A stretch of 64,000 nucleotides of DNA from the sequence record OP555981.1; one strand, given 5' to 3'. The translations under genes were made by a program, and so were the position numbers. This document shows, piece by piece, positions 2,418 through 52,853 of this stretch. Each line of letters starts with the position of its first letter. Within the stretch, counting starts at the first letter, position 1. The notes beneath the pieces were generated by a model. That model was not told the origin of the DNA. It saw only the letters and a list, made by a program, of their open reading frames with translations, and searched no databases. The DNA is from Escherichia phage vB_EcoM-UFV10.

Positions 2418-2447
2418 ATTATACCACATCCTTGTGGTAAAGTAAAC
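2418..2447 (-). promoter_or_regulatory. early promoter (sigma70-like -35 GTTTAC / -10 TATAAT) for rIIA.1
   Basis: minus strand GTTTAC-17bp-TATAAT; spacer holds palindrome CCACAAGGATGTGG; approximate coordinates. Confidence 0.55.
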
Positions 2448-4264
2448 TACTGGCTCATCCATTCTTTACGAAGGTCAGCATTATCTCCCATGAGCATTTC
2501 AAAAAGCTCTTTCCAATTCTCAGGAAGTTTAACAACATCATATACTGGGTTTTGAATCATCTCACGATATTCAGATTTTTCCAAAGAGCCAAGTCCTTTA
2601 ATATAACGGATGCTATGTTTAGGTAGAGCATCTTTGGCACTCTCATATTCAGCGACTGTATAAAACCATTCTTGTTTTTTACCGACCTGAGCGATGATTA
2701 CAGGAGTTTTGACAAAGCGAATTCGTCCTTGCTCAAACAATTCTGGCCAATTACTAAAAAATCCGAGCAGAGAAGGATAAATGCTTCCTAAACCATCATG
2801 GTCAGCATCGGTCATAATAGCAATATTATGATAATTCAAGTTTTCAGCTTTTTCACCAAGAACTAATCCAGTGATTGCGCAAATATCAAACAGTTCTTTG
2901 TTTTTAAGCATATCAGCATATGACATACCCCAGCTATTAAGAACTTTACCACGCAATGGATAACCACCGTGAAGTTCTTTATCACGAACATCAATAAGAT
3001 ATCCGATAGCAGAATCACCCTCAGTCAAGAAAAGAGTAGTGTCAGCATCTTTACCACAAAGATTCGCTTTGATATGTTTATGAACCTTAGCTTTAGAAGC
3101 CTTTTTAGCTGCTTTAGTTTCTGCTGCTTTTTCTGCCGCCAATTTACGAGCAAGGGCAGCTTCAATGATTGGCATTAAAATTGCTTCATTATTTAGAATA
3201 GCGCGTGAAATCTTTTTAGCATCAAGTTGAATATGACTACGAATTTCGCCAAATGGAGAAGTCAAACGCTCTTTAGTTTGAGAATCAAATCGCATGTTTT
3301 TCATATCACGGACAAACATAACGATAGTCAAACATTCTTTGACACGTGCTTTAGTCACATCAATTTTGAACTTACGTTTGATTTGTGGAATAAGGTCTTC
3401 ACAAATATCATCCATAACACAGTCAATGTGATGGCCACCATTCTTAGTGTGAATGTTATTCACATAAGTTAATTGACGAAATCCATCCGGTGAACGACCA
3501 ACAGCAATAGAACAATTTTCTTGTTCTTGAACAATAGCATGTTCATCATACTGTCGTGCATATTTCTTAAAATTGCCCTGAACCTTTTTACCATTAAAGG
3601 TAAATTGAATATCAGGATAAACAACAGCAAGTGTCTGGAGACGATCTAGTGTAATGTCAAGATAAACTTGGGACAGCTCATTAGTTTCAAATGACATAAA
3701 ATCTGGAATGAAAGTAACACGAGTTCCTTTCCATTTTCCAGGAATAGTTTCCCAGGATTTATTTTCCATGCCATTTGAACAACGAACTACAATATTATTT
3801 TGACCATCGCCAGTTTCACCGACAAACATCACAGAAAAAATGTTAGTTAAACTAGAACCAACACCATTCATACCACCGGTGACGCGTTCTTTATCATCAC
3901 CAAAGTTACCACCCGCTTTTGGAATAGTCCATGCAGCAACAGGACCAGGAATTTCTTCACCGGTAGGTGTTTTAACCATCGCTTGCGGAATACCGCGACC
4001 GTTATCTTCAACTGTCACCTGATTATTTTTAATGGTAACATTAATTTTATTCGCGAATTTAAACTTAGTACGAATACCTTCATCGACTGAGTTATCGATA
4101 ATTTCATCAATAAGCTTAACAAGACCAGGTACATACTGAACACTTTCCCATTTACCAAACAGAAAGCGCTCATGCATTTCATTAGCAGAAGAGCCAATGT
4201 ACATGCCACTACGCTTTTTGATATGTTCAATATCGCTCAGAATTTTAATTTCATTCTTAATCAT
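2447..4264 (-). CDS. 39: DNA topoisomerase II large subunit, GyrB-like ATPase, single fused 39+60 ORF
   Basis: 605 aa from ATG (track ORF begins one codon earlier at GTG); MIKNEIKILSDIEHIKKRSGMYIGS, GHKL and toprim-like regions; continuous ORF with no gene 60 or mobA. Confidence 0.9.
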   Translation of the reverse strand: MIKNEIKILSDIEHIKKRSGMYIGSSANEMHERFLFGKWESVQYVPGLVKLIDEIIDNSVDEGIRTKFKFANKINVTIKNNQVTVEDNGRGIPQAMVKTPTGEEIPGPVAAWTIPKAGGNFGDDKERVTGGMNGVGSSLTNIFSVMFVGETGDGQNNIVVRCSNGMENKSWETIPGKWKGTRVTFIPDFMSFETNELSQVYLDITLDRLQTLAVVYPDIQFTFNGKKVQGNFKKYARQYDEHAIVQEQENCSIAVGRSPDGFRQLTYVNNIHTKNGGHHIDCVMDDICEDLIPQIKRKFKIDVTKARVKECLTIVMFVRDMKNMRFDSQTKERLTSPFGEIRSHIQLDAKKISRAILNNEAILMPIIEAALARKLAAEKAAETKAAKKASKAKVHKHIKANLCGKDADTTLFLTEGDSAIGYLIDVRDKELHGGYPLRGKVLNSWGMSYADMLKNKELFDICAITGLVLGEKAENLNYHNIAIMTDADHDGLGSIYPSLLGFFSNWPELFEQGRIRFVKTPVIIAQVGKKQEWFYTVAEYESAKDALPKHSIRYIKGLGSLEKSEYREMIQNPVYDVVKLPENWKELFEMLMGDNADLRKEWMSQ

Positions 4265-4292
4265 CACTTATCCTCGTTTGGTTTCGGGAATA

Positions 4293-5155: not shown

Positions 5156-5581
5156 TTATTCCTTAAAATGGGCTTTCAGCATCTGATACAAAGACCACGC
5201 CTGTTCATTATTTTCAATAGTAACTTTCATGACCGGGAATTCTGTGAAATCTTCTATCTGTTCTTGCTCTTTCTCTTCCTGCTCTTGCTCTTCGGCTGCC
5301 TGGTATGGATTTTCCACTTCATCAAAGAACACAGCTTCGCTCGTTGAAAGCCAGATAAAATCTTCATCCAAAATATCTTTACCAGAAGATAACGCCAATT
5401 TTCCACTAGATGTCACAAGTTTAGTAGGACGACCAAGATAGTCAATATCTGTAACTCTAAAAGGTTCCATACCAAGACGACGTGCATAAATTCCGTTTTC
5501 AGTATGGTCCTTGATAAAATCTTCTTGAGCTTGTTTATTTTTAAATTGATACCATTTATTAACTTCAAATTTAATAGCCAT
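5156..5581 (-). CDS. acidic hypothetical protein (possibly goF-like by size and position)
   Basis: 141-aa ORF with acidic [12 protein letters not shown] stretch; T4 goF is also 141 aa at this position but identity not verified. Confidence 0.45.
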
Positions 5582-5796
5582 TAATAAGTTTCCTTCCAGT
5601 AAGTTGTGCCATCTTCAGTAATTTCACGAAACACACCATAAATTGGTTGTTTATCACCAACTTTTTCGTACACATAAACCGAAGTCAAGTGAGTAAACTT
5701 AACGGTATGTTCCTTTTGAACCACTACCAAATCTGGATCAAATAATACATCTTCAAATTCGTCATTAGTGCAATTCTGAACAATTTTACGTTTCAT
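5581..5796 (-). CDS. hypothetical protein
   Basis: 71-aa ORF, ATG start, TAATG overlap with upstream gene. Confidence 0.4.
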
Positions 5797-5809
5797 TACA
5801 ATTTCCTCA

Positions 5810-6079
5810 TTAATTGAACAGTGGAGCGATGCGTTTCAGAAGAGTAGCAGCACCTTTAGCGAATTTTACATCATGAAAAACAGTTTCTTCTTCCGTTACA
5901 ACACGAGCTTTAATGTTTTCACAATCCCAATTTTTGCGAACAATCTTCAAAAGCTGCAGTAAATCTTTACATTCAACAATATCGATAACACATCCACGAG
6001 AATCTTCCATTATCGCACGATAACCGTAAGCCATACCATAATCGTTGAAAGATTGCTCGATGATAATTAAGTTTTCCAT
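5810..6079 (-). CDS. hypothetical protein
   Basis: 89 aa from internal ATG (track start is TTG inside the conserved leader); preceded by GGAGAATAAAATG leader and early promoter. Confidence 0.5.
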   Translation of the reverse strand: MENLIIIEQSFNDYGMAYGYRAIMEDSRGCVIDIVECKDLLQLLKIVRKNWDCENIKARVVTEEETVFHDVKFAKGAATLLKRIAPLFN

Positions 6080-6122
6080 TTTATTCTCCAAGTTATTTTC
6101 TGTATCAGTAGTTGATATTGAT

Positions 6123-6151
6123 ATAGTACCATAATCAACTACTGATGTATA
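6123..6151 (-). promoter_or_regulatory. early promoter with flanking 11-bp inverted repeat
   Basis: minus strand TATACA-17bp-TACTAT; inverted repeat CAGTAGTTGAT / ATCAACTACTG (about 6106-6116 and 6134-6144) brackets the -10. Confidence 0.45.
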
Positions 6152-6176
6152 TAGTTTTATGAAAAAATTTTAAACT

Positions 6177-6668
6177 TTATGCATAGCGAGCTTTGCTATA
6201 GTGTTTAATCCAACTTTCAGGAATGACTTTGTATGTTCCTAAATATACCGCGTTGTACAGCTTAACACCGTCTTCTACCCACTGATCAGTAATGTATGCA
6301 CACATAGCGCGAGTACGGTTAACAACACCTTCCTCACCTTCAGTAAATTCGAATTCATAAGGAGCAACGAACTTGATAGCTTGACCGAGTTTCCACTTAA
6401 AGTCTACACCTACATGTGAAGTATCAATCGTTTCAATTCCTTTAGCAGGAACAGCTTTCAAAAACGCAGACTCAAGAAATTTCGCACGAACATAGCCAAA
6501 CTGAGGTTTAGACTTTCCATCTTTAGGAATGATACGCACTTTTACTTCAGAATCTTCATCTTTAACACCATGTTTAAGCTGAATGCTTACAATTTCGACC
6601 AATTTTCCTGCTGCTTTAGAGCGGGATTTATCAGATACACGAGCTAATTCACCAATATTAATAATCAT
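6177..6668 (-). CDS. MotB-like protein (by size and synteny)
   Basis: 163-aa ORF at the motB position; C-terminal ITDQWVEDGVKLYNAVYLGTYKVIPESW motif shared with the next ORF. Confidence 0.45.
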   Translation of the reverse strand: MIINIGELARVSDKSRSKAAGKLVEIVSIQLKHGVKDEDSEVKVRIIPKDGKSKPQFGYVRAKFLESAFLKAVPAKGIETIDTSHVGVDFKWKLGQAIKFVAPYEFEFTEGEEGVVNRTRAMCAYITDQWVEDGVKLYNAVYLGTYKVIPESWIKHYSKARYA

Positions 6669-6706
6669 AGTTATCTCTCACTTGTTAAAAAGATTTTATA
6701 CTCCAC

Positions 6707-6742
6707 GGGACCATTATACTCTGGTCCCAAGAGTTTGTAAAC
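6707..6742 (-). promoter_or_regulatory. early promoter with -10 inside a hairpin-forming palindrome
   Basis: minus strand GTTTAC-17bp-TATAAT; GGGACC...GGTCCC arms enclose the TATAAT. Confidence 0.5.
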
Positions 6743-7176
6743 TAGCTTACACGAACATTAATCACTGCGCTACGAGGAACTACAGAGTATTCTCCAGCAT
6801 GAACTACGTTCAGAAGTTCAACGCCATCTTCAATCCACTGGTCAGTTACCCAACCGCCGACCGGATTCGCGAATGGACGACGAATGTAAACCGCCTTACA
6901 CAACAAATCAGTCGGATCTTCAGGTTTTTCAATTTCTGTCAATAGATTAAAATCTTCTTCATAGATGATGAATGATGATACCCTTCCATAATAGTTTCTA
7001 ATTTCCATGTACACTGTACCAATGAGAATTCCGCTATTAACCCTAATAACAGTAAAAGGATATCCGCCAGTTGTACCAAGAAGTTCCCAAAACTTGCTAT
7101 CAGTCGTATTCGACATTGTCTGGAAATCAATTTCAGATGGTTTTTTCATTTGATACGCAGTATTAATTTTAATCAT
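6742..7176 (-). CDS. hypothetical protein, paralog of 6177-6668
   Basis: 144-aa ORF; C-terminal VTDQWIEDGVELLNVVHAGEYSVVPRS resembles neighbour. Confidence 0.45.
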   Translation of the reverse strand: MIKINTAYQMKKPSEIDFQTMSNTTDSKFWELLGTTGGYPFTVIRVNSGILIGTVYMEIRNYYGRVSSFIIYEEDFNLLTEIEKPEDPTDLLCKAVYIRRPFANPVGGWVTDQWIEDGVELLNVVHAGEYSVVPRSAVINVRVS

Positions 7177-7185
7177 AATTTTCCT

Positions 7186-7698
7186 TTAATCTAAGGTAAT
7201 AAAGCCTTTTAATTCGGCATGCGATTTGCGGAACATTACTTGGTGACCGCCAATGATAACTTGGTCATCAGGAACTTCATAAATCGCAATGTACATTCCA
7301 CGATCTTTTAAGTCTTCACGCTCTTCTCGAGTAAACCATCTCATTATATCATATTCACTAGCGAAAGCAAAATGATATAATGCAATAAACCACAATGGAA
7401 TATAATTTTCAATTCGTGAATAATCTTTATTCCATTTAGTTTTAATAGCATCATTAGCATTTTCAACTAATAACTTATCATCGTGTGGAATAGGAATACT
7501 TTCATGACTTTCATAATCATTGCTATGATGATGAAATGACGATGAATTAATACCGCAAAATTTTAGCCAAGTTCGAGTTTTCATAGAATCAAATCCACGA
7601 TAAGGAGTTGATTGAACGCATAACTCTTGCCTAATTTTCACTATACCACTATCATCATTTAATGCGCTAAACGATGATTCAACACGATAAATTTTCAT
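7186..7698 (-). CDS. hypothetical protein
   Basis: 170-aa ORF, ATG start, early promoter upstream. Confidence 0.45.
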   Translation of the reverse strand: MKIYRVESSFSALNDDSGIVKIRQELCVQSTPYRGFDSMKTRTWLKFCGINSSSFHHHSNDYESHESIPIPHDDKLLVENANDAIKTKWNKDYSRIENYIPLWFIALYHFAFASEYDIMRWFTREEREDLKDRGMYIAIYEVPDDQVIIGGHQVMFRKSHAELKGFITLD

Positions 7699-7761
7699 TT
7701 TATTATCCTCAGTAGCTATGGTGTTATAATACCATAACTAACCGAGGAAGTAAACAACTTT

Positions 7762-8445
7762 TTATCGTTTTGTTGGAAGAGATAGAGGATCACACTCTTC
7801 CTCTGATGGAGCGTCTTCAAGACCCATAGCATAGCGCAAAGCATACTTCATCATCAGGATGTCTTTCGCACAGTCATGAATAGAATCATGCGCAACGAAT
7901 CCATCTAAAGTTCCTTTTGGAAGAGGACACGTGGTCATATCACGAACAAGGAGAAGTGCTTCAATTCTGGTACGAATATCACGCTGATTCCAAAATTTAC
8001 AAGGTTCTAACTTAAATGTATCAAGCTCATTCTCGGAAACGCCGTTAAAACGTTGAATATCGCGAATGAGATCGACTAAAATTGGAAAATCAAACGACAT
8101 TCCACGGCACCAGCCTTGAGATTTCCAAGGATCGATATTATGCGCATTGATGTAATCATTAAATTTTGCAATACCATCGATAGTGCTTACATCTTCATCT
8201 GATGGCGCAATATTTTTTCGAGCTTCAGGAGATTGATTCTTCCACCATTCAATAGTGCTTTTAGTAAAAAGACGGTGTCCTTTTTGACTTTTTAAGTCAA
8301 ATTTAATTTTAATGCCACGTGAAACTAGTTCATCGAATGTTTCAACAACTTCTGGGTTAGGGTCAAAAGCAATTACAGCCAAATCAATAACAGCTGCTTT
8401 TTCACCACTTCCCATCGTTTCAAAATCTATAATAAAATCAAACAT
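7762..8445 (-). CDS. dexA: exonuclease A (DEDD-type 3'-5' exonuclease)
   Basis: 227-aa ORF, N-terminal IIDFETMG exonuclease motif, length and position match T4 dexA. Confidence 0.8.
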   Translation of the reverse strand: MFDFIIDFETMGSGEKAAVIDLAVIAFDPNPEVVETFDELVSRGIKIKFDLKSQKGHRLFTKSTIEWWKNQSPEARKNIAPSDEDVSTIDGIAKFNDYINAHNIDPWKSQGWCRGMSFDFPILVDLIRDIQRFNGVSENELDTFKLEPCKFWNQRDIRTRIEALLLVRDMTTCPLPKGTLDGFVAHDSIHDCAKDILMMKYALRYAMGLEDAPSEEECDPLSLPTKR

Positions 8446-9178: not shown

Positions 9179-10498
9179 TCACACATAAAATACGTCATAA
9201 CGACCACGGGTAACACCAACATAAAGAAGTTGTTGAGCCAATTCAGCATCTGCATAATGAATACAAGGCGTATAAATGAAAGCACGGTCTACAGACATAC
9301 CCTGAGCTTTATGGAATGTTGATGCAGGAAGTGCTTTCACTTTACTAAACTGTGATTTAGCATCCCAAAAATCACTCCATGGAGCTTTTCCGCCTTTGTT
9401 CAAATTTTTATAAGTTTCTGCCGTTTTACCTAAAAATAAGTTAAACTTATACAGCTCTTCATCAGATGAAATTATTTTAATCTTTTCACGATAATATTCA
9501 TCATCGCCGTAAGTTTCTACTGTTAAATCCCAATGACGAATTAGATATTCTCCAGGAACACCACGAGCTTTAACAAATGTTGATGTATATTCTGCTTCTA
9601 TAATACGAACTAATTGTCCGTTATTAAAAATAATTTCTGACACAGGCTTTCCATCAATTTTATATGTTTTAATTAATGGTTCCTGCATTACAATAATTTC
9701 ACCGACAATAAAATCTTTATCAGTTTCAAAAATCTTTTTACGAATAATGCTATTTAACTTGTCAACAGATTTATTCGTAAATGCCATTACGCGATTTTCA
9801 AACAAATCATCTAGTGATTTGACGATTGAAAAATAATTTACCATAAAATCGCGTAAAGCGGTATCACCAGTAAATCCACGTACTCCATGCCCGTCAACAA
9901 CTTTATCATAAATCCACTTACCGTTGCGAACATCAGTAGCTACATCAATAATAGGAGCATTACTGCGTTTAACTTCAGTGAGTTCACACTGATAAAAATC
10001 TTTGTGTGTAAAAAATGGACTGATATAAGCAGTGTTTTCTCCTGGGTCAACAGGTCTAATTTGCTTATTATCACCTATTCCAATTATAGTACACCACGGC
10101 GGGATAGTTGAAAGCAGAATTTTAAATAGCTTTCTATCATACATTGACACTTCGTCGCAGATTAATACCCTGCATTTAGCTAAATCTGGTACTTCCTTCT
10201 GTTCAAAAAGAACGTTTTCTTCATATGTTACGGGGTTAATTTTAAGAATACTGTGAATAGTACTCGCTTCTTTCCCCGACAGTTTTGAAAGAATCTTTTT
10301 AGCTGCATGTGTAGGAGCTGCCAAAATGATACCAGTTTCGCCCGTAGATATTAAAGCTTCAATGATGAACTTAGTAAGAGTAGTCTTACCAGTACCAGCA
10401 GGTCCATTAATAGTTACATGATGTTTCTTTTCTTTAATAGCCCTCATAACGATGTTAAAGGCATTTTTCTGACCTTCGGTCAAATCATCAAATGTCAT
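9179..10498 (-). CDS. dda: Dda DNA helicase (SF1B)
   Basis: 439-aa ORF, Walker A GPAGTGKTT, length and position match T4 Dda. Confidence 0.9.
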   Translation of the reverse strand: MTFDDLTEGQKNAFNIVMRAIKEKKHHVTINGPAGTGKTTLTKFIIEALISTGETGIILAAPTHAAKKILSKLSGKEASTIHSILKINPVTYEENVLFEQKEVPDLAKCRVLICDEVSMYDRKLFKILLSTIPPWCTIIGIGDNKQIRPVDPGENTAYISPFFTHKDFYQCELTEVKRSNAPIIDVATDVRNGKWIYDKVVDGHGVRGFTGDTALRDFMVNYFSIVKSLDDLFENRVMAFTNKSVDKLNSIIRKKIFETDKDFIVGEIIVMQEPLIKTYKIDGKPVSEIIFNNGQLVRIIEAEYTSTFVKARGVPGEYLIRHWDLTVETYGDDEYYREKIKIISSDEELYKFNLFLGKTAETYKNLNKGGKAPWSDFWDAKSQFSKVKALPASTFHKAQGMSVDRAFIYTPCIHYADAELAQQLLYVGVTRGRYDVFYV

Positions 10499-14093: not shown

Positions 14094-14553
14094 TTATTTT
14101 ACCTAAAACAATAGTATGGACACCGTCAAATTTATGAATTTTTAGCAAATTAGGATTTAAATTATTCCATAAAGAGGTAATAAAATATGATAGCGCACTT
14201 TCGTCCGTAATTATAAATTTATTTCCCTTATCAATTTTCCAGTCATATATTGAATCATATGAATAGAAGGATAACGGTTTATTGTTATAGTATGCTTTAG
14301 CAACATCAATATAGTTAGATTTAGTAAATGCTTGAATTGCCATAAATGGAGAATTTTGTACAGTTTCAATAATTCCGATCTTTTTAAGTTTTATTTCAAC
14401 ATCTTCTGGAACTGGCATTGAAATAAAATCTTCTACTAGATACATGTTATTGTCATATCTTTTATCAATCATTACTGCTACGGTAATTGGAACATCCTTG
14501 ACAAACGCCATACTAATACTATTGATAGACATTTCAAACAAAATCGCTTCCAT
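14068..14553 (-). CDS. hypothetical protein
   Basis: 161 aa from internal ATG behind GAGGAA; track start is TTG. Confidence 0.45.
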
Positions 14554-25108: not shown

Positions 25109-25143
25109 TTTATTCTCCAAATCCGTATCAGTTGATAGTTGTA

Positions 25144-25172
25144 TAGTACCATGGAAGAACGGGGATGTAAAT
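25144..25172 (-). promoter_or_regulatory. early promoter plus conserved leader (TTTACA / TACTAT / ...GGAGAATAAAATG)
   Basis: same promoter-leader module as at about 6100, 51350, 52800, 56380. Confidence 0.5.
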
Positions 25173-25260
25173 AGTTTTGTGAAAAAATTTTTAATGAATT
25201 TACAGGACCTAGAATCATCTATTTTTCCTAAGTATAGATTTATATTACTTGTATGAAAAA

Positions 25261-31644: not shown

Positions 31645-32361
31645 ATGAATTATAAACTAATTTATGAAAAGTTAATCTCTAATGCTAAATCTCGAAAACT
31701 TGATTGCTATACTGAATCTCATCACATTATACCGCGCTGTTTAAATGGAAGTGATGATGCTTCAAACTTAGTAGATTTAACACCAGAAGAGCACTATGTA
31801 GCTCATCAACTTTTAGTAAAAATTTATCCTTCTGAACCAAAATTAGTCTATGCTGCTAACATGATGACAGTTTCTACGAAATACGCTAAACGCAACAATA
31901 AAACTTTCGGTTGGATTCGTCGTAAACTCTGGGAAATAGAAAAGAACAAAGAATTCTCCCAGGAGACACGAAAGAAAATGTCTGATGCAGTAGCTAATAA
32001 AGCAAGATTAACTTGTCCTCATTGCGGTAAGTCTGGATTAAGCGGAAATATGAATCGTTGGCATTTTGATAACTGCCCAAATCACCCTAATCCTAAAATT
32101 AGACCACCAATGTCTAAAGAACACAGAAATAATATCTCAAACGGGCTTAAAGCAATCGTTCTTGAAGAAACATCCTGCGAATTCTGCGGAATGATAGGCA
32201 AGAAATGCGTTATCGCAGCGCATAGAAATTTCTGCAAGAAAAATCCAAATGGACGCAAGAAAACTGAAAAGACTGGTACTTGCGTCCATTGTGGTAAAGT
32301 TACCACTTTCGGAAATTTATCAAGATGGCATAATGATAACTGTAAATATAAACTTAGCTAA
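31645..32361 (+). CDS. HNH homing endonuclease with three C-terminal zinc-finger repeats
   Basis: 238 aa; HNH core ESHHIIPRCLNGSDDASNLVDLTPEEHYVAHQLL; three CxxCG...RWHxDNC repeats; plus strand with TATAAATA upstream. Confidence 0.8.
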   Translation: MNYKLIYEKLISNAKSRKLDCYTESHHIIPRCLNGSDDASNLVDLTPEEHYVAHQLLVKIYPSEPKLVYAANMMTVSTKYAKRNNKTFGWIRRKLWEIEKNKEFSQETRKKMSDAVANKARLTCPHCGKSGLSGNMNRWHFDNCPNHPNPKIRPPMSKEHRNNISNGLKAIVLEETSCEFCGMIGKKCVIAAHRNFCKKNPNGRKKTEKTGTCVHCGKVTTFGNLSRWHNDNCKYKLS

Positions 32362-34042
32362 TCTTAGCTAAACTAAATCTACCAACTTTTTCCATCTGAA
32401 TATGCTGACCATATTCTTGTGGGTCATGGTCTTTATGTGAAATTATGAAGAAGTTGGTATCCTTCAAACCATCTAAAATTTTAGCTACATTTTTAATACC
32501 TTCAGCATCAAATGCACCGTCATACACTTCATCAAGAAATAAACAACTTATTTTAACACCTGAAACTTTTTCAGCAATATCACGCCAAGTAAATAAAAGA
32601 GCAATATCAATTCGCGCTTTTTCACCTTGACTGAATGAAGCATAACTAAAATCTTCACGACCACGGGATTTAATTGTCTCATTAAATTCTTCATCTAATG
32701 TAAACACATAATCCGCTTCCATTATTTTAAGATAATGGTTAATCTGCTTATTAAATAATGGAATGTACTTTTTAATAATAGCACCTTTAATACCAGAATC
32801 TTTGAGCATATCAGTCAAAATTCCTCGGTGGTATTTTTCCATTACTAAATTAGTTTTTGTCTTAACAATTTTATCAAGTTCTTCTTGAAGCAGTGCTATT
32901 TCATCAGCATGGTCAATAAACTCAGAAGATGCTTTTTCTATAGCCGCTTTAACCTTTTTAGCTTTATCTACTGCTGCGATCAGAGATTGCTTTTTATTGC
33001 GAATATCATTTGCCAACGACTGCTGGGTTTTAATATTATCTCGGTATTCATCAACAAGAACTTTTAAATTATCACGATGTGTTGAAAGATGTTCAAACGA
33101 ATGCGTGCATTCAGAAACTTTATCTTTAATTTTAGAAACAACTTTATCACCGGAACTTAATTGTGACAAACAGGTTGGACATAATCCACCTTCGTGATAC
33201 ATATTAATGACTTTATTATACGAGTCAATTTTTGATTTAATTAAAACTGCTTCTTGACCGATTTTATTAAATGCATCAGTCGGGTCTTCATCTAAAACAA
33301 TATTAACTAATCTTTCATTAGCTTCTTCTATTTCCGATTTTAGCGTTCTAGCTTCTTTTGCCAAATCATCATACATATTTTGAAGACGAGTAAGGTTGTC
33401 ACCCGTTAATTTTTTCTGGCGTTCAACGTTATCATTATATATTTTAATTTGTTGGATAATACTATCTTTTTTAACATCAAGCACTTGGTTTTGTGAATTT
33501 AATTCACGTATTAGTGCTTTATTAAGCTTATCCATTTCAGCTAATGTTCCTACCTCGAGCAGGTCTTCCACAAGCTTTCTTCGCGCAGGGGTCGACAAAC
33601 CCATGAAAGGGGTATACCCTGCTGTACCAAGGACAACAATCTGCTTGAAACTGGCATATGACATTCCGATAAGCTGTTCAAATTCTGCTTGGAAATCTTT
33701 ACTGCTGGCAGATTCATTAAGACGTGTACCGTTAACGGTGATTTCGAAAACGTTTGGTTTTTGTCCTCTTTTGATATAATACTTTTTCTCATCATATTCC
33801 ATCCACAGTTCAACTAAAAGTTCTTTCTTATTTGTGCTGTTTATTAATTGACCTTTCTTTACATCACGAAATGGCTTGCCAAAAAGCCCAAATGTGATGG
33901 CTTCTAACATAGTAGACTTACCACCGCCATTTCGTCCAGTAATAAGAGTTTTTTGAACCTTATCTAATTGAATGTCAATAGGATTTCCACCTACTGACAT
34001 TATATTTTGATACCTAACTCGGTTTAGTTTAAAATTCTTCAC
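32354..34042 (-). CDS. 46: recombination endonuclease subunit (Rad50/SbcC-like ATPase)
   Basis: 562 aa; Walker A GRNGGGKST, central coiled coil, C-terminal signature/Walker B; first codon reads GTG. Confidence 0.9.
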   Translation of the reverse strand: MKNFKLNRVRYQNIMSVGGNPIDIQLDKVQKTLITGRNGGGKSTMLEAITFGLFGKPFRDVKKGQLINSTNKKELLVELWMEYDEKKYYIKRGQKPNVFEITVNGTRLNESASSKDFQAEFEQLIGMSYASFKQIVVLGTAGYTPFMGLSTPARRKLVEDLLEVGTLAEMDKLNKALIRELNSQNQVLDVKKDSIIQQIKIYNDNVERQKKLTGDNLTRLQNMYDDLAKEARTLKSEIEEANERLVNIVLDEDPTDAFNKIGQEAVLIKSKIDSYNKVINMYHEGGLCPTCLSQLSSGDKVVSKIKDKVSECTHSFEHLSTHRDNLKVLVDEYRDNIKTQQSLANDIRNKKQSLIAAVDKAKKVKAAIEKASSEFIDHADEIALLQEELDKIVKTKTNLVMEKYHRGILTDMLKDSGIKGAIIKKYIPLFNKQINHYLKIMEADYVFTLDEEFNETIKSRGREDFSYASFSQGEKARIDIALLFTWRDIAEKVSGVKISCLFLDEVYDGAFDAEGIKNVAKILDGLKDTNFFIISHKDHDPQEYGQHIQMEKVGRFSLAKIS

Positions 34043-50797: not shown

Positions 50798-51325
50798 TTA
50801 TGCGAGTACCGTCTTTAACCGTTCTTCAAACTTCCGAAGAGTATTCTGGCGTTCAGCTCTTTGCTTTTTGTAAGTTTCAATACGCTCTGAAATGAGAGTG
50901 TATCGTTCATTTACTGATTCTTTCATAAAATCAGGAATTTCACGAGAAGCTTTAATCTCGTCAAATTTATCAATAACAGCTTGCTCTTCAGCAATTAAGT
51001 TATCATACATCAAAATATCTTTCTTGATGAACTCAATATCTTCTTGAGTTACACGAGATAATTTAAATGCTTTATCCTTTTTGTACTGTTCGTTAGTATC
51101 ACGAGACCAGTGTAATGTACGATTTTTATTCGTATTCTTATAAATTTCTACAATACCAATATCATCAATAATAACGATCCAATTCCAACGGGATTTGTAA
51201 ATTTGTCCTCCATCAACTGTGATTTCACCTCCGATTGAGATGTCATTAAAGAACTTGCTTTGTGCTTCTGATTTAAATTTACCATCGTTGTAATTTACCA
51301 AGTTGAAAATATCTTTAGCGTTCAT
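50798..51325 (-). CDS. hypothetical protein
   Basis: 175 aa from ATG MNAKDIF; track extension is translated leader. Confidence 0.45.
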   Translation of the reverse strand: MNAKDIFNLVNYNDGKFKSEAQSKFFNDISIGGEITVDGGQIYKSRWNWIVIIDDIGIVEIYKNTNKNRTLHWSRDTNEQYKKDKAFKLSRVTQEDIEFIKKDILMYDNLIAEEQAVIDKFDEIKASREIPDFMKESVNERYTLISERIETYKKQRAERQNTLRKFEERLKTVLA

Positions 51326-51353
51326 TTTCTGTTCCTCCGTAGTTGATAGTTGT

Positions 51354-51383
51354 ATAGTACCACAGAGGAACAGTCTTGTAAAC
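51354..51383 (-). promoter_or_regulatory. early promoter
   Basis: minus strand GTTTAC-18bp-TACTAT then conserved leader; approximate. Confidence 0.45.
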
Positions 51384-51385
51384 AA

Positions 51386-52758: not shown

Positions 52759-52792
52759 TTTATTCTCCAAATCCGTATCAGTTGATAGTTGT

Positions 52793-52822
52793 ATAGTACC
52801 ATAAAGCTTTATGCTTGTAAAC
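52793..52822 (-). promoter_or_regulatory. early promoter for the ATPase gene
   Basis: minus strand GTTTAC-18bp-TACTAT then leader ...GGAGAATAAAATG; follows the hairpin at 52854-52871. Confidence 0.5.
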
Positions 52823-52853
52823 TGTTTTGTGAAAAAATTTTTGAAATAAAAAA

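Follow-up and report, generated by a model that had tools for sequence, protein, structure and literature searches.

A perfect inverted repeat surrounds the -10 hexamer of an apparent early promoter in a T4-like phage, and the question raised by this arrangement is whether the repeat is read as duplex DNA by a regulatory protein, as an operator would be, or takes effect as a structure in RNA. Our analysis covered a stretch of 64,000 nucleotides (hereafter the window) from record OP555981.1, which belongs to Tequatrovirus. Over positions 5500-6800 it is 100% identical to Escherichia phage vB_EcoM-UFV09 and shares 96-98% identity with hundreds of Tequatrovirus genomes. The genes around the repeat lie on the minus strand throughout:

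2447-4267, minus strand: gene 39
5156-5581, minus strand: goF
5581-5796, minus strand: cef
5810-6079, minus strand: 89-aa ORF (phrog_3720, unknown function), first gene under the focal promoter
6177-6668, minus strand: motB (Pfam PF17613, E = 6e-100; annotated as MotB in relatives), upstream of the hairpin
6742-7176, minus strand: motB.1
7186-7698, minus strand: motB.2
7762-8445, minus strand: dexA

The repeat falls inside the 97-nt gap that separates the motB stop codon (6179-6177) from the ATG at 6079. A few relatives share with this phage an intact 89-aa ORF from this ATG; in T4 and most others, the ORF is reduced to a stub of ~11 codons. The T4 deletion has its junction at an AAAA microhomology within the ORF, and not between two copies of the repeated promoter cassette described below. 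Every genome with a shortened ORF, T4 included, retains the promoter and hairpin upstream. Since the interior of the ORF is gone from T4 and most relatives and the promoter and hairpin are kept, the element also serves cef and goF.

The elements of the promoter and of the repeat interlock, and in minus-strand order they are arranged as follows:

6154-6172, minus strand: A/T-rich stretch AAAATTTTTTCATAAAAC where an UP element would lie, conserved in every paralogous cassette
6146-6151, minus strand: -35 hexamer TATACA, aligning with the annotated -35 of T4 PE 54.4
6134-6146, minus strand: 5' arm of the repeat, ATCAGTAGTTGAT, occupying the greater part of the 17-bp spacer, from -30 to -18
6117-6133, minus strand: 17 nt between the arms, TATGGTACTATATCAAT, containing TG (6131-6130) and the -10 TACTAT (6128-6123)
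6104-6116, minus strand: 3' arm of the repeat, ATCAACTACTGAT, supplying the transcript's first 13 nt for a +1 at about 6116
6079-6089, minus strand: predicted RegB-type site GGAGAATAAAA, spanning GGAG (6089-6086) to the first base of the ATG and matching the consensus perfectly

The preliminary description of this locus had placed an early promoter here, with its -10 TACTAT between the arms and facing the 5810-6079 ORF. Alignment with paralogs, an annotated paralog in T4 and the match to consensus all agree with that placement, and we regard a genuine T4-type early promoter in the 6104-6172 region as well supported at the level of sequence. The order of elements, from the A/T-rich stretch through TATACA, a 17-bp spacer, TGg and TACTAT to a leader of 37 nt (for a +1 at about 6116), GGAG and ATG, is consistent with the description of T4 early promoters as being of the UP/-35/TGn/-10 type (PMC2988021). 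The segment TATACA-N17-TGgTACTAT agrees at 11 of 12 positions with TTTACW-N17-TAYWAT, the early promoter consensus of the PST/T4 pair (PMC4122927); the -35 of the cassette family is TTTACA, and that of the focal copy is TATACA. The last base of this hexamer (6146) is also the first base of the 5' arm. Downstream lie the ribosome-binding site GGAGAATAAA, with the Shine-Dalgarno (SD) sequence GGAG at 6089-6086, and then the ATG at 6079.

Based on a spacing of 7 nt after the -10, we infer a transcription start at about 6116. The 3' arm begins at this very base, so that RNA initiated at the promoter itself would lack the 5' arm and be unable to form the hairpin; RNA arriving from upstream could form it. 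Two other promoter assignments were rejected. An upstream candidate, TTTAAA-N15-TATATA, which would place the hairpin at the 5' end of the mRNA, has the wrong spacing and lies in a stretch that aligns with the A/T-rich region of the family. A MotA box (middle promoter) in the upstream sequence ATGCATAAA was judged by eye to be a poor match at the wrong spacing.

The repeat itself is more extensive than first described. The perfect 11-bp repeat that had been reported, CAGTAGTTGAT at 6106-6116 and ATCAACTACTG at 6134-6144 on the plus strand, is present, and its perfect arms extend to 13 bp each (ATCAGTAGTTGAT at 6104-6116 and ATCAACTACTGAT at 6134-6146, plus strand). Within the intervening 17 nt, five inner pairs (TGGTA/TATCA, one of them G.U) close a 3-nt loop, CTA. 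The total stem is thus 13 + 5 = 18 bp, with the -10-like TACTAT (6128-6123, minus strand) at its tip, and the whole forms a helix of roughly 20 bp interrupted by a 2x2 internal loop. Only 4 of the 13 outer pairs are G-C. Among perfect inverted repeats with loops of 25 nt or less, this is the longest in the 64-kb window; arms of at least 13 bp are expected 0.08 times per dinucleotide shuffle and were seen in 5 of 60 shuffles. The fold has a z-score of -4.5 as RNA (116 nt) and -5.1 as DNA (51 nt). An Rfam scan of 5700-6800 on both strands returned no family. Inverted repeats with arms of at least 11 bp number six in the window, against 0.7 expected from shuffles; the other perfect ones, with arms of 11-12 bp and loops of 18-25 nt, are at 32248-32290, 32717-32763, 9737-9781, 7342-7382 and 14389-14428.

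The promoter belongs to a family of repeated cassettes, and comparison within this family indicates which arm is new. The 97-nt gap matches paralogous stretches of the window at 25194-25109 (74%) and 52841-52759 (71%) and, more weakly, at 51385-51323, giving three full copies and one partial copy in the window; across about 600 related genomes, the cassette is matched at 3-6 places per genome. One of the paralogous cassettes (25109-25194, 52759-52841 and 51323-51385, all on the minus strand) closely follows the DNA polymerase gene, and the others are in the nrdC.x region. Matches to the RegB-type consensus also occur in two of them, at 25109-25120 and 52759-52770. The alignment of orthologs and paralogs defines a shared cassette consisting of AAAATTTTTTCAYAAAAC, TTTACA, N17, TGGTACTATA, a segment containing ATCAAC, and TTGGAGAATAAAATG. 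In T4 (U76612.1), the paralog upstream of nrdC.10 carries the annotations "terminator", "-35" and "-10, early promoter 54.4"; in a 95-nt alignment, its -35 and -10 line up with those of the focal copy, and the -10 is the same heptamer, TACTATA. The closest paralog, at 84% identity, lies upstream of e.8 in T2L, a site that we take to be near an internal-protein (IP) locus on the T4 map.

Across the family, the 3' arm is a conserved initial transcribed sequence, identical upstream of T2L e.8 and in EC.W1-1 and with one mismatch in ESh27. The 5' arm is absent from the paralogs, whose spacer is CCCTGTTCTTCC or GCATAAAGCTT, neither complementary to the transcribed side. Because the paralogs carry the 3' arm together with a different spacer, the 5' arm is the derived, complementary side. 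The segment just past the -10 has also changed, from ACAACT in paralogs to ATCAAT here, and this change creates the five inner pairs. The 17-bp spacer therefore became the reverse complement of the first 13 transcribed bases, leaving the -10 at the tip of an 18-bp hairpin.

The same design occurs at other early promoters in the window. Scanning for T[TA]TAC[AT]-N17-TAnnnT and folding each match from the -35 hexamer to about +24, we required a hairpin of -16 kcal/mol or lower, with at least 12 pairs, that encloses the -10. Seven of the 26 early-promoter matches in the 64-kb window passed this threshold, six of them in addition to the focal one:

7754, 51382, 60608, 6151 (focal), 6741, 55597 and 19455, minus strand: -35 starts of the hairpin-enclosed promoters

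Swapping downstream halves among the promoters yielded 4 passing combinations of 650 (Fisher p = 1.6e-8), and shuffled spacers gave an expectation of 0.02 against the 7 of 26 observed. The arm sequence differs at each of these promoters. At 7754, 51382 and 60608, the 3' arm contains the SD sequence of the next gene, and at 7754 the modeled folds predict clear gating (SD pairing 1.00 versus 0.31). Weaker pairing between spacer and transcript was also seen at -35 starts 15164 and 63632 (minus strand).

Orthologous loci outside Tequatrovirus preserve the geometry with other sequences. In Dhakavirus (IME08, MN04 and locus L009), the promoter downstream of motB retains GCATAAAGTTTAAAA, TATACA, N17 and TAYTAT. 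Its arms, GGTAGGGTA(GTG) and TACCCTATC, are unrelated to the focal ones; they contain G.U pairs and have the -10 at their center. At the same position, a hairpin, GATAGGG..CCCTATC, persists in Gaprivervirus (SP18, RZ and a VR25-like contig), with no recognizable -35 or -10. In RB69, RB27, LF82-1 and pSe_SNUABM_01, the best motB match directly precedes a second motB-like gene, which leaves no intergenic region to compare with the focal one. A parallel comparison was made for the promoter of motB itself, covering window positions 6713-6741 and six orthologs (loci L042, L044-L047 and L049). The arms of the motB promoter hairpin show compensatory differences, GGGACC/GGTCCC in Tequatrovirus against GGGGTC/GACCCC in Gaprivervirus, and in Dhakavirus this hairpin has the unrelated arms GAGAGCCAT/ATGGCTCTC.

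Within Tequatrovirus, the focal element is nearly uniform. A 49-nt core is shared without a single difference by 474 of about 500 orthologous records (T4 among them), and the arms are likewise invariant in metagenomic and IMG/VR orthologs retrieved by the loop sequence; the upstream A/T run and four leader sites vary. Owing to this invariance of the arms across the genus (about 500 genomes and the metagenomic orthologs), no column-wise covariation is obtainable for the focal helix. In JE01 and IME340, the -10 TATTAT replaces TACTAT, a change at the equivalent of window position 6126; the changed base sits in the 3-nt loop, leaving the hairpin unaffected. In one of 515 records, that of Escherichia phage Pinarejo (PP925831.1, locus 401-443), the 17-nt interval that separates the arms is inverted, which represents either a real flip of the hairpin loop or an assembly error. 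An invertible switch built on this flip was considered and rejected, given its occurrence in 1 of 515 records and the fact that the flipped form still presents TGaTATAGT at the -10 position, which is not an on/off difference.

The strand on which these structures pair best bears on the level at which they act. Compared with the antisense strand, the sense strand gives the more stable fold in 8 of 9 cases in the window, owing to 1-5 G.U pairs, and in all 5 orthologs from other genera, again through G.U pairs; such pairs work only in sense RNA. At the focal hairpin, which has a single G.U pair, the difference is small (2.2 kcal/mol; sense -20.2, antisense -18.0), and it is larger at most other sites. 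Arms that are specific to each site, arms that are specific to each genus within a constant geometry, and G.U pairs that favor the sense strand together suggest that the structure has been selected in sense RNA and is not a duplex read by a protein. We infer that the focal hairpin, too, acts in RNA.

We therefore lean toward the view that the focal element is a composite of promoter and stem-loop of the type known as PeSLs, with a hairpin that exists only in RNA read through from motB, and that it is not an operator. The nearest source of such RNA is the early promoter of motB:

6713-6741, minus strand: motB early promoter, TTTACA-N17-TATAAT, matching the consensus at 11 of 12 positions

The -10 of this promoter is enclosed by a hairpin of its own (-19.7 kcal/mol), and a terminator scan found no terminator-like site between it and the focal hairpin. 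Read-through RNA from motB would fold into the focal hairpin; transcripts from the focal promoter would start with the 3' arm, carry no 5' arm and remain open. The hairpin could then mark the 3' boundary of the motB message, and it might attenuate or pause the read-through. The predicted RegB site, which lies 15 nt downstream of the stem, offers two other possibilities. The strong cleavage consensus for RegB is GG*AGRAYARAA (PMC3014915), and once this site is cut, the hairpin might block 3'-to-5' exonucleases, thereby protecting the motB message, or alternatively offer a double-strand site for processing. Canonical intrinsic termination does not fit: the terminator scan found no intrinsic terminator at the hairpin, and the stem is followed by ACAGAAAAUAAC, with no U-tract. 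Translational gating of the downstream 89-aa ORF was rejected, because the SD sequence lies 14 nt outside the stem and its predicted pairing is similar in the two RNAs (modeled probability 0.78 in read-through and 0.71 in self-started RNA).

Other readings of the repeat must be weighed against this one. An operator would entail a dimeric DNA-binding protein of phage or host that occupies two half-sites of 11-13 bp (-30 to +13), occludes polymerase and shuts off the early promoter. The dyad symmetry is perfect, is centered on the -10 and covers the polymerase footprint, as in palindromic operators such as lac O1 and the LexA boxes, where symmetry likewise spans the region bound by polymerase; moreover, the core is highly conserved, and the shut-off of T4 early transcription is not fully explained (PMC2988021). 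However, unlike lac O1 and the LexA boxes, the focal repeat comes with neither a repeated half-site nor a candidate protein. Exact matches to the half-site in the 64-kb window are limited to the two arms, and allowing up to one mismatch gives 5 matches, the two arms included, against 1.2 expected; a half-site with no further copies beyond chance implies that there is no regulon. The sister promoters and the Dhakavirus ortholog share the geometry but have unrelated arms, so no single protein could read them all, and many palindromes of the class are imperfect on duplex DNA and good only in sense RNA, through G.U pairs. Repression or anti-termination control, as put forward in the preliminary description, is thus left with the geometry in its favor, and we regard an operator as highly improbable. 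The repeat might instead be a neutral by-product: a single template switch (quasi-palindrome) would have copied the initial transcribed region into the tolerant spacer, and the result would have been kept by descent without function. Templated quasi-palindrome mutation is well documented in T4. The derived state of the 5' arm, with paralogs that share the 3' arm and have a different spacer, agrees with such an event, as do the tolerance of promoter spacers to sequence change and the flipped 17-nt loop in Pinarejo, which suggests that the palindrome engages in strand switching; related genomes are only 2-5% diverged here, such that identity could reflect inheritance. Template switching is indeed a plausible way for the repeat to have arisen. 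Yet six other promoter matches show the design independently, many more than spacer shuffling or partner swapping would predict, and it is found in another genus, Dhakavirus, with different arms. Additional substitutions in the loop add the five inner pairs, and the arms are invariant next to variable flanks. The enrichment at the level of the class argues against a neutral origin as the whole account, which we consider unlikely.

Two further readings accept the structure or its palindromic core and assign it a different activity. In one, an enzyme of the RNase III type would cut the helix in read-through RNA, separating the motB message from the downstream unit, much as processing of this type occurs between the early genes of phage T7. 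The length of the helix and its internal loop (13 + 5 bp), its intergenic position 30 nt after the motB stop codon and the missing U-tract, which calls for something other than intrinsic termination, would suit such a role. Against it, a review of T4 does not mention RNase III in T4 mRNA processing, and the sister hairpins and the Dhakavirus and Gaprivervirus orthologs have 7-15 bp, under the usual substrate length; we judge this reading quite doubtful. In the other, the plus strand would carry an extended -10 promoter, TGaTATAGT (6119-6127), firing antisense into motB. Extended -10 promoters can work without a -35, and the sequence TGaTATAGT is what speaks for this proposal. The TGn class of promoter has been mentioned for T4 (PMC2988021). 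However, the corresponding -35 position reads TCTGTA (2 of 6 matches), with no A/T-rich stretch upstream; the promoter scan did not return the site, and it would have no ORF or conserved feature to serve. A palindromic core makes the plus strand read as an extended -10 look-alike, which explains the motif without invoking function, and we find an antisense promoter scarcely credible.

A promoter joined to a stem-loop that forms in motB read-through RNA is therefore the reading carried forward here, and it has several relatives among described systems. PeSLs couple an early promoter to a stem-loop that may be placed in the interval from the -35 to the -10 or extend over the -10 (Arbiol et al. 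2010, PMC2839356). In phi1 and RB49, the stem-loop most often occupies one of these two positions, and terminator or attenuator activity has been shown only for a phi1/RB49 stem-loop (PMC2839356). A later study reported PeSLs in the PST/T4 pair as well (Comeau et al. 2014, PMC4122927). The focal element resembles PeSLs in being intergenic, in combining an AT-rich upstream region, an early promoter of the form -35/N17/-10 and a stem-loop with an SD sequence and ATG that follow, in being one of many repeats per genome and in adjoining small variable ORFs, here the 89-aa ORF that is present or deleted among relatives. It also differs from them. Its arms are AT-rich, with neither polyG/polyC nor a U-tract, making terminator activity doubtful; the figure legend for PST/T4 puts the stem-loops just upstream of the promoter, whereas the focal stem encloses the -10 (PMC4122927); and the T4 deletion of the neighboring ORF falls at a microhomology inside that ORF and not between two cassettes.

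A second comparison is with the "IP-associated" repeats of T-even phages (Repoila et al. 1994), which a later paper describes as based on T4 early promoters and as having AT-rich stem-loops that are weaker and vary in size (PMC2839356). Judging by that later description, the focal cassette is probably of the same kind; this copy is located between motB and cef, not at an IP locus. A parallel to the proposed logic comes from the T4 genes e, soc, 49 and I-TevI, each of which has a promoter within a hairpin; long transcripts fold, and those started at the internal promoter are missing the 5' strand (PMC3014915). The focal promoter similarly lies inside the structure, and its own transcript would lose the 5' strand, given the +1 placed here. 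The promoters of e, soc, 49 and I-TevI, however, are late, and their SD sequence or AUG is buried, whereas the focal promoter is early and its ribosome-binding site lies 14 nt outside the stem.

For this locus, the outcome is mainly one of clarification: the repeat is no sign of an unknown repressor, and the element looks like an instance of a cassette of promoter and stem-loop already known from T4-like phages. The wider pattern, in which roughly one in four of the window's early-promoter matches hides the -10 in a hairpin between the spacer and the first transcribed bases, may be of interest to specialists. The T4 reviews covered by the analysis make no mention of pairing between spacer and transcript at T-even early promoters. 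We raise as a tentative possibility that such pairing is a selected, general design of T-even early promoters, which tells read-through RNA from self-started RNA at gene boundaries. If this is true, read-through RNA would be folded, and hence processed, stabilized at its 3' end or blocked for translation, and self-started RNA would be open; the logic of the late genes e, soc, 49 and I-TevI would then extend to a large share of the early program, with the focal 18-bp hairpin as its most extreme example. If functional, the design would constrain the building of synthetic T4 promoters and gene insertions, and it could allow tandem, co-directional early units to treat read-through and self-initiated RNA differently.
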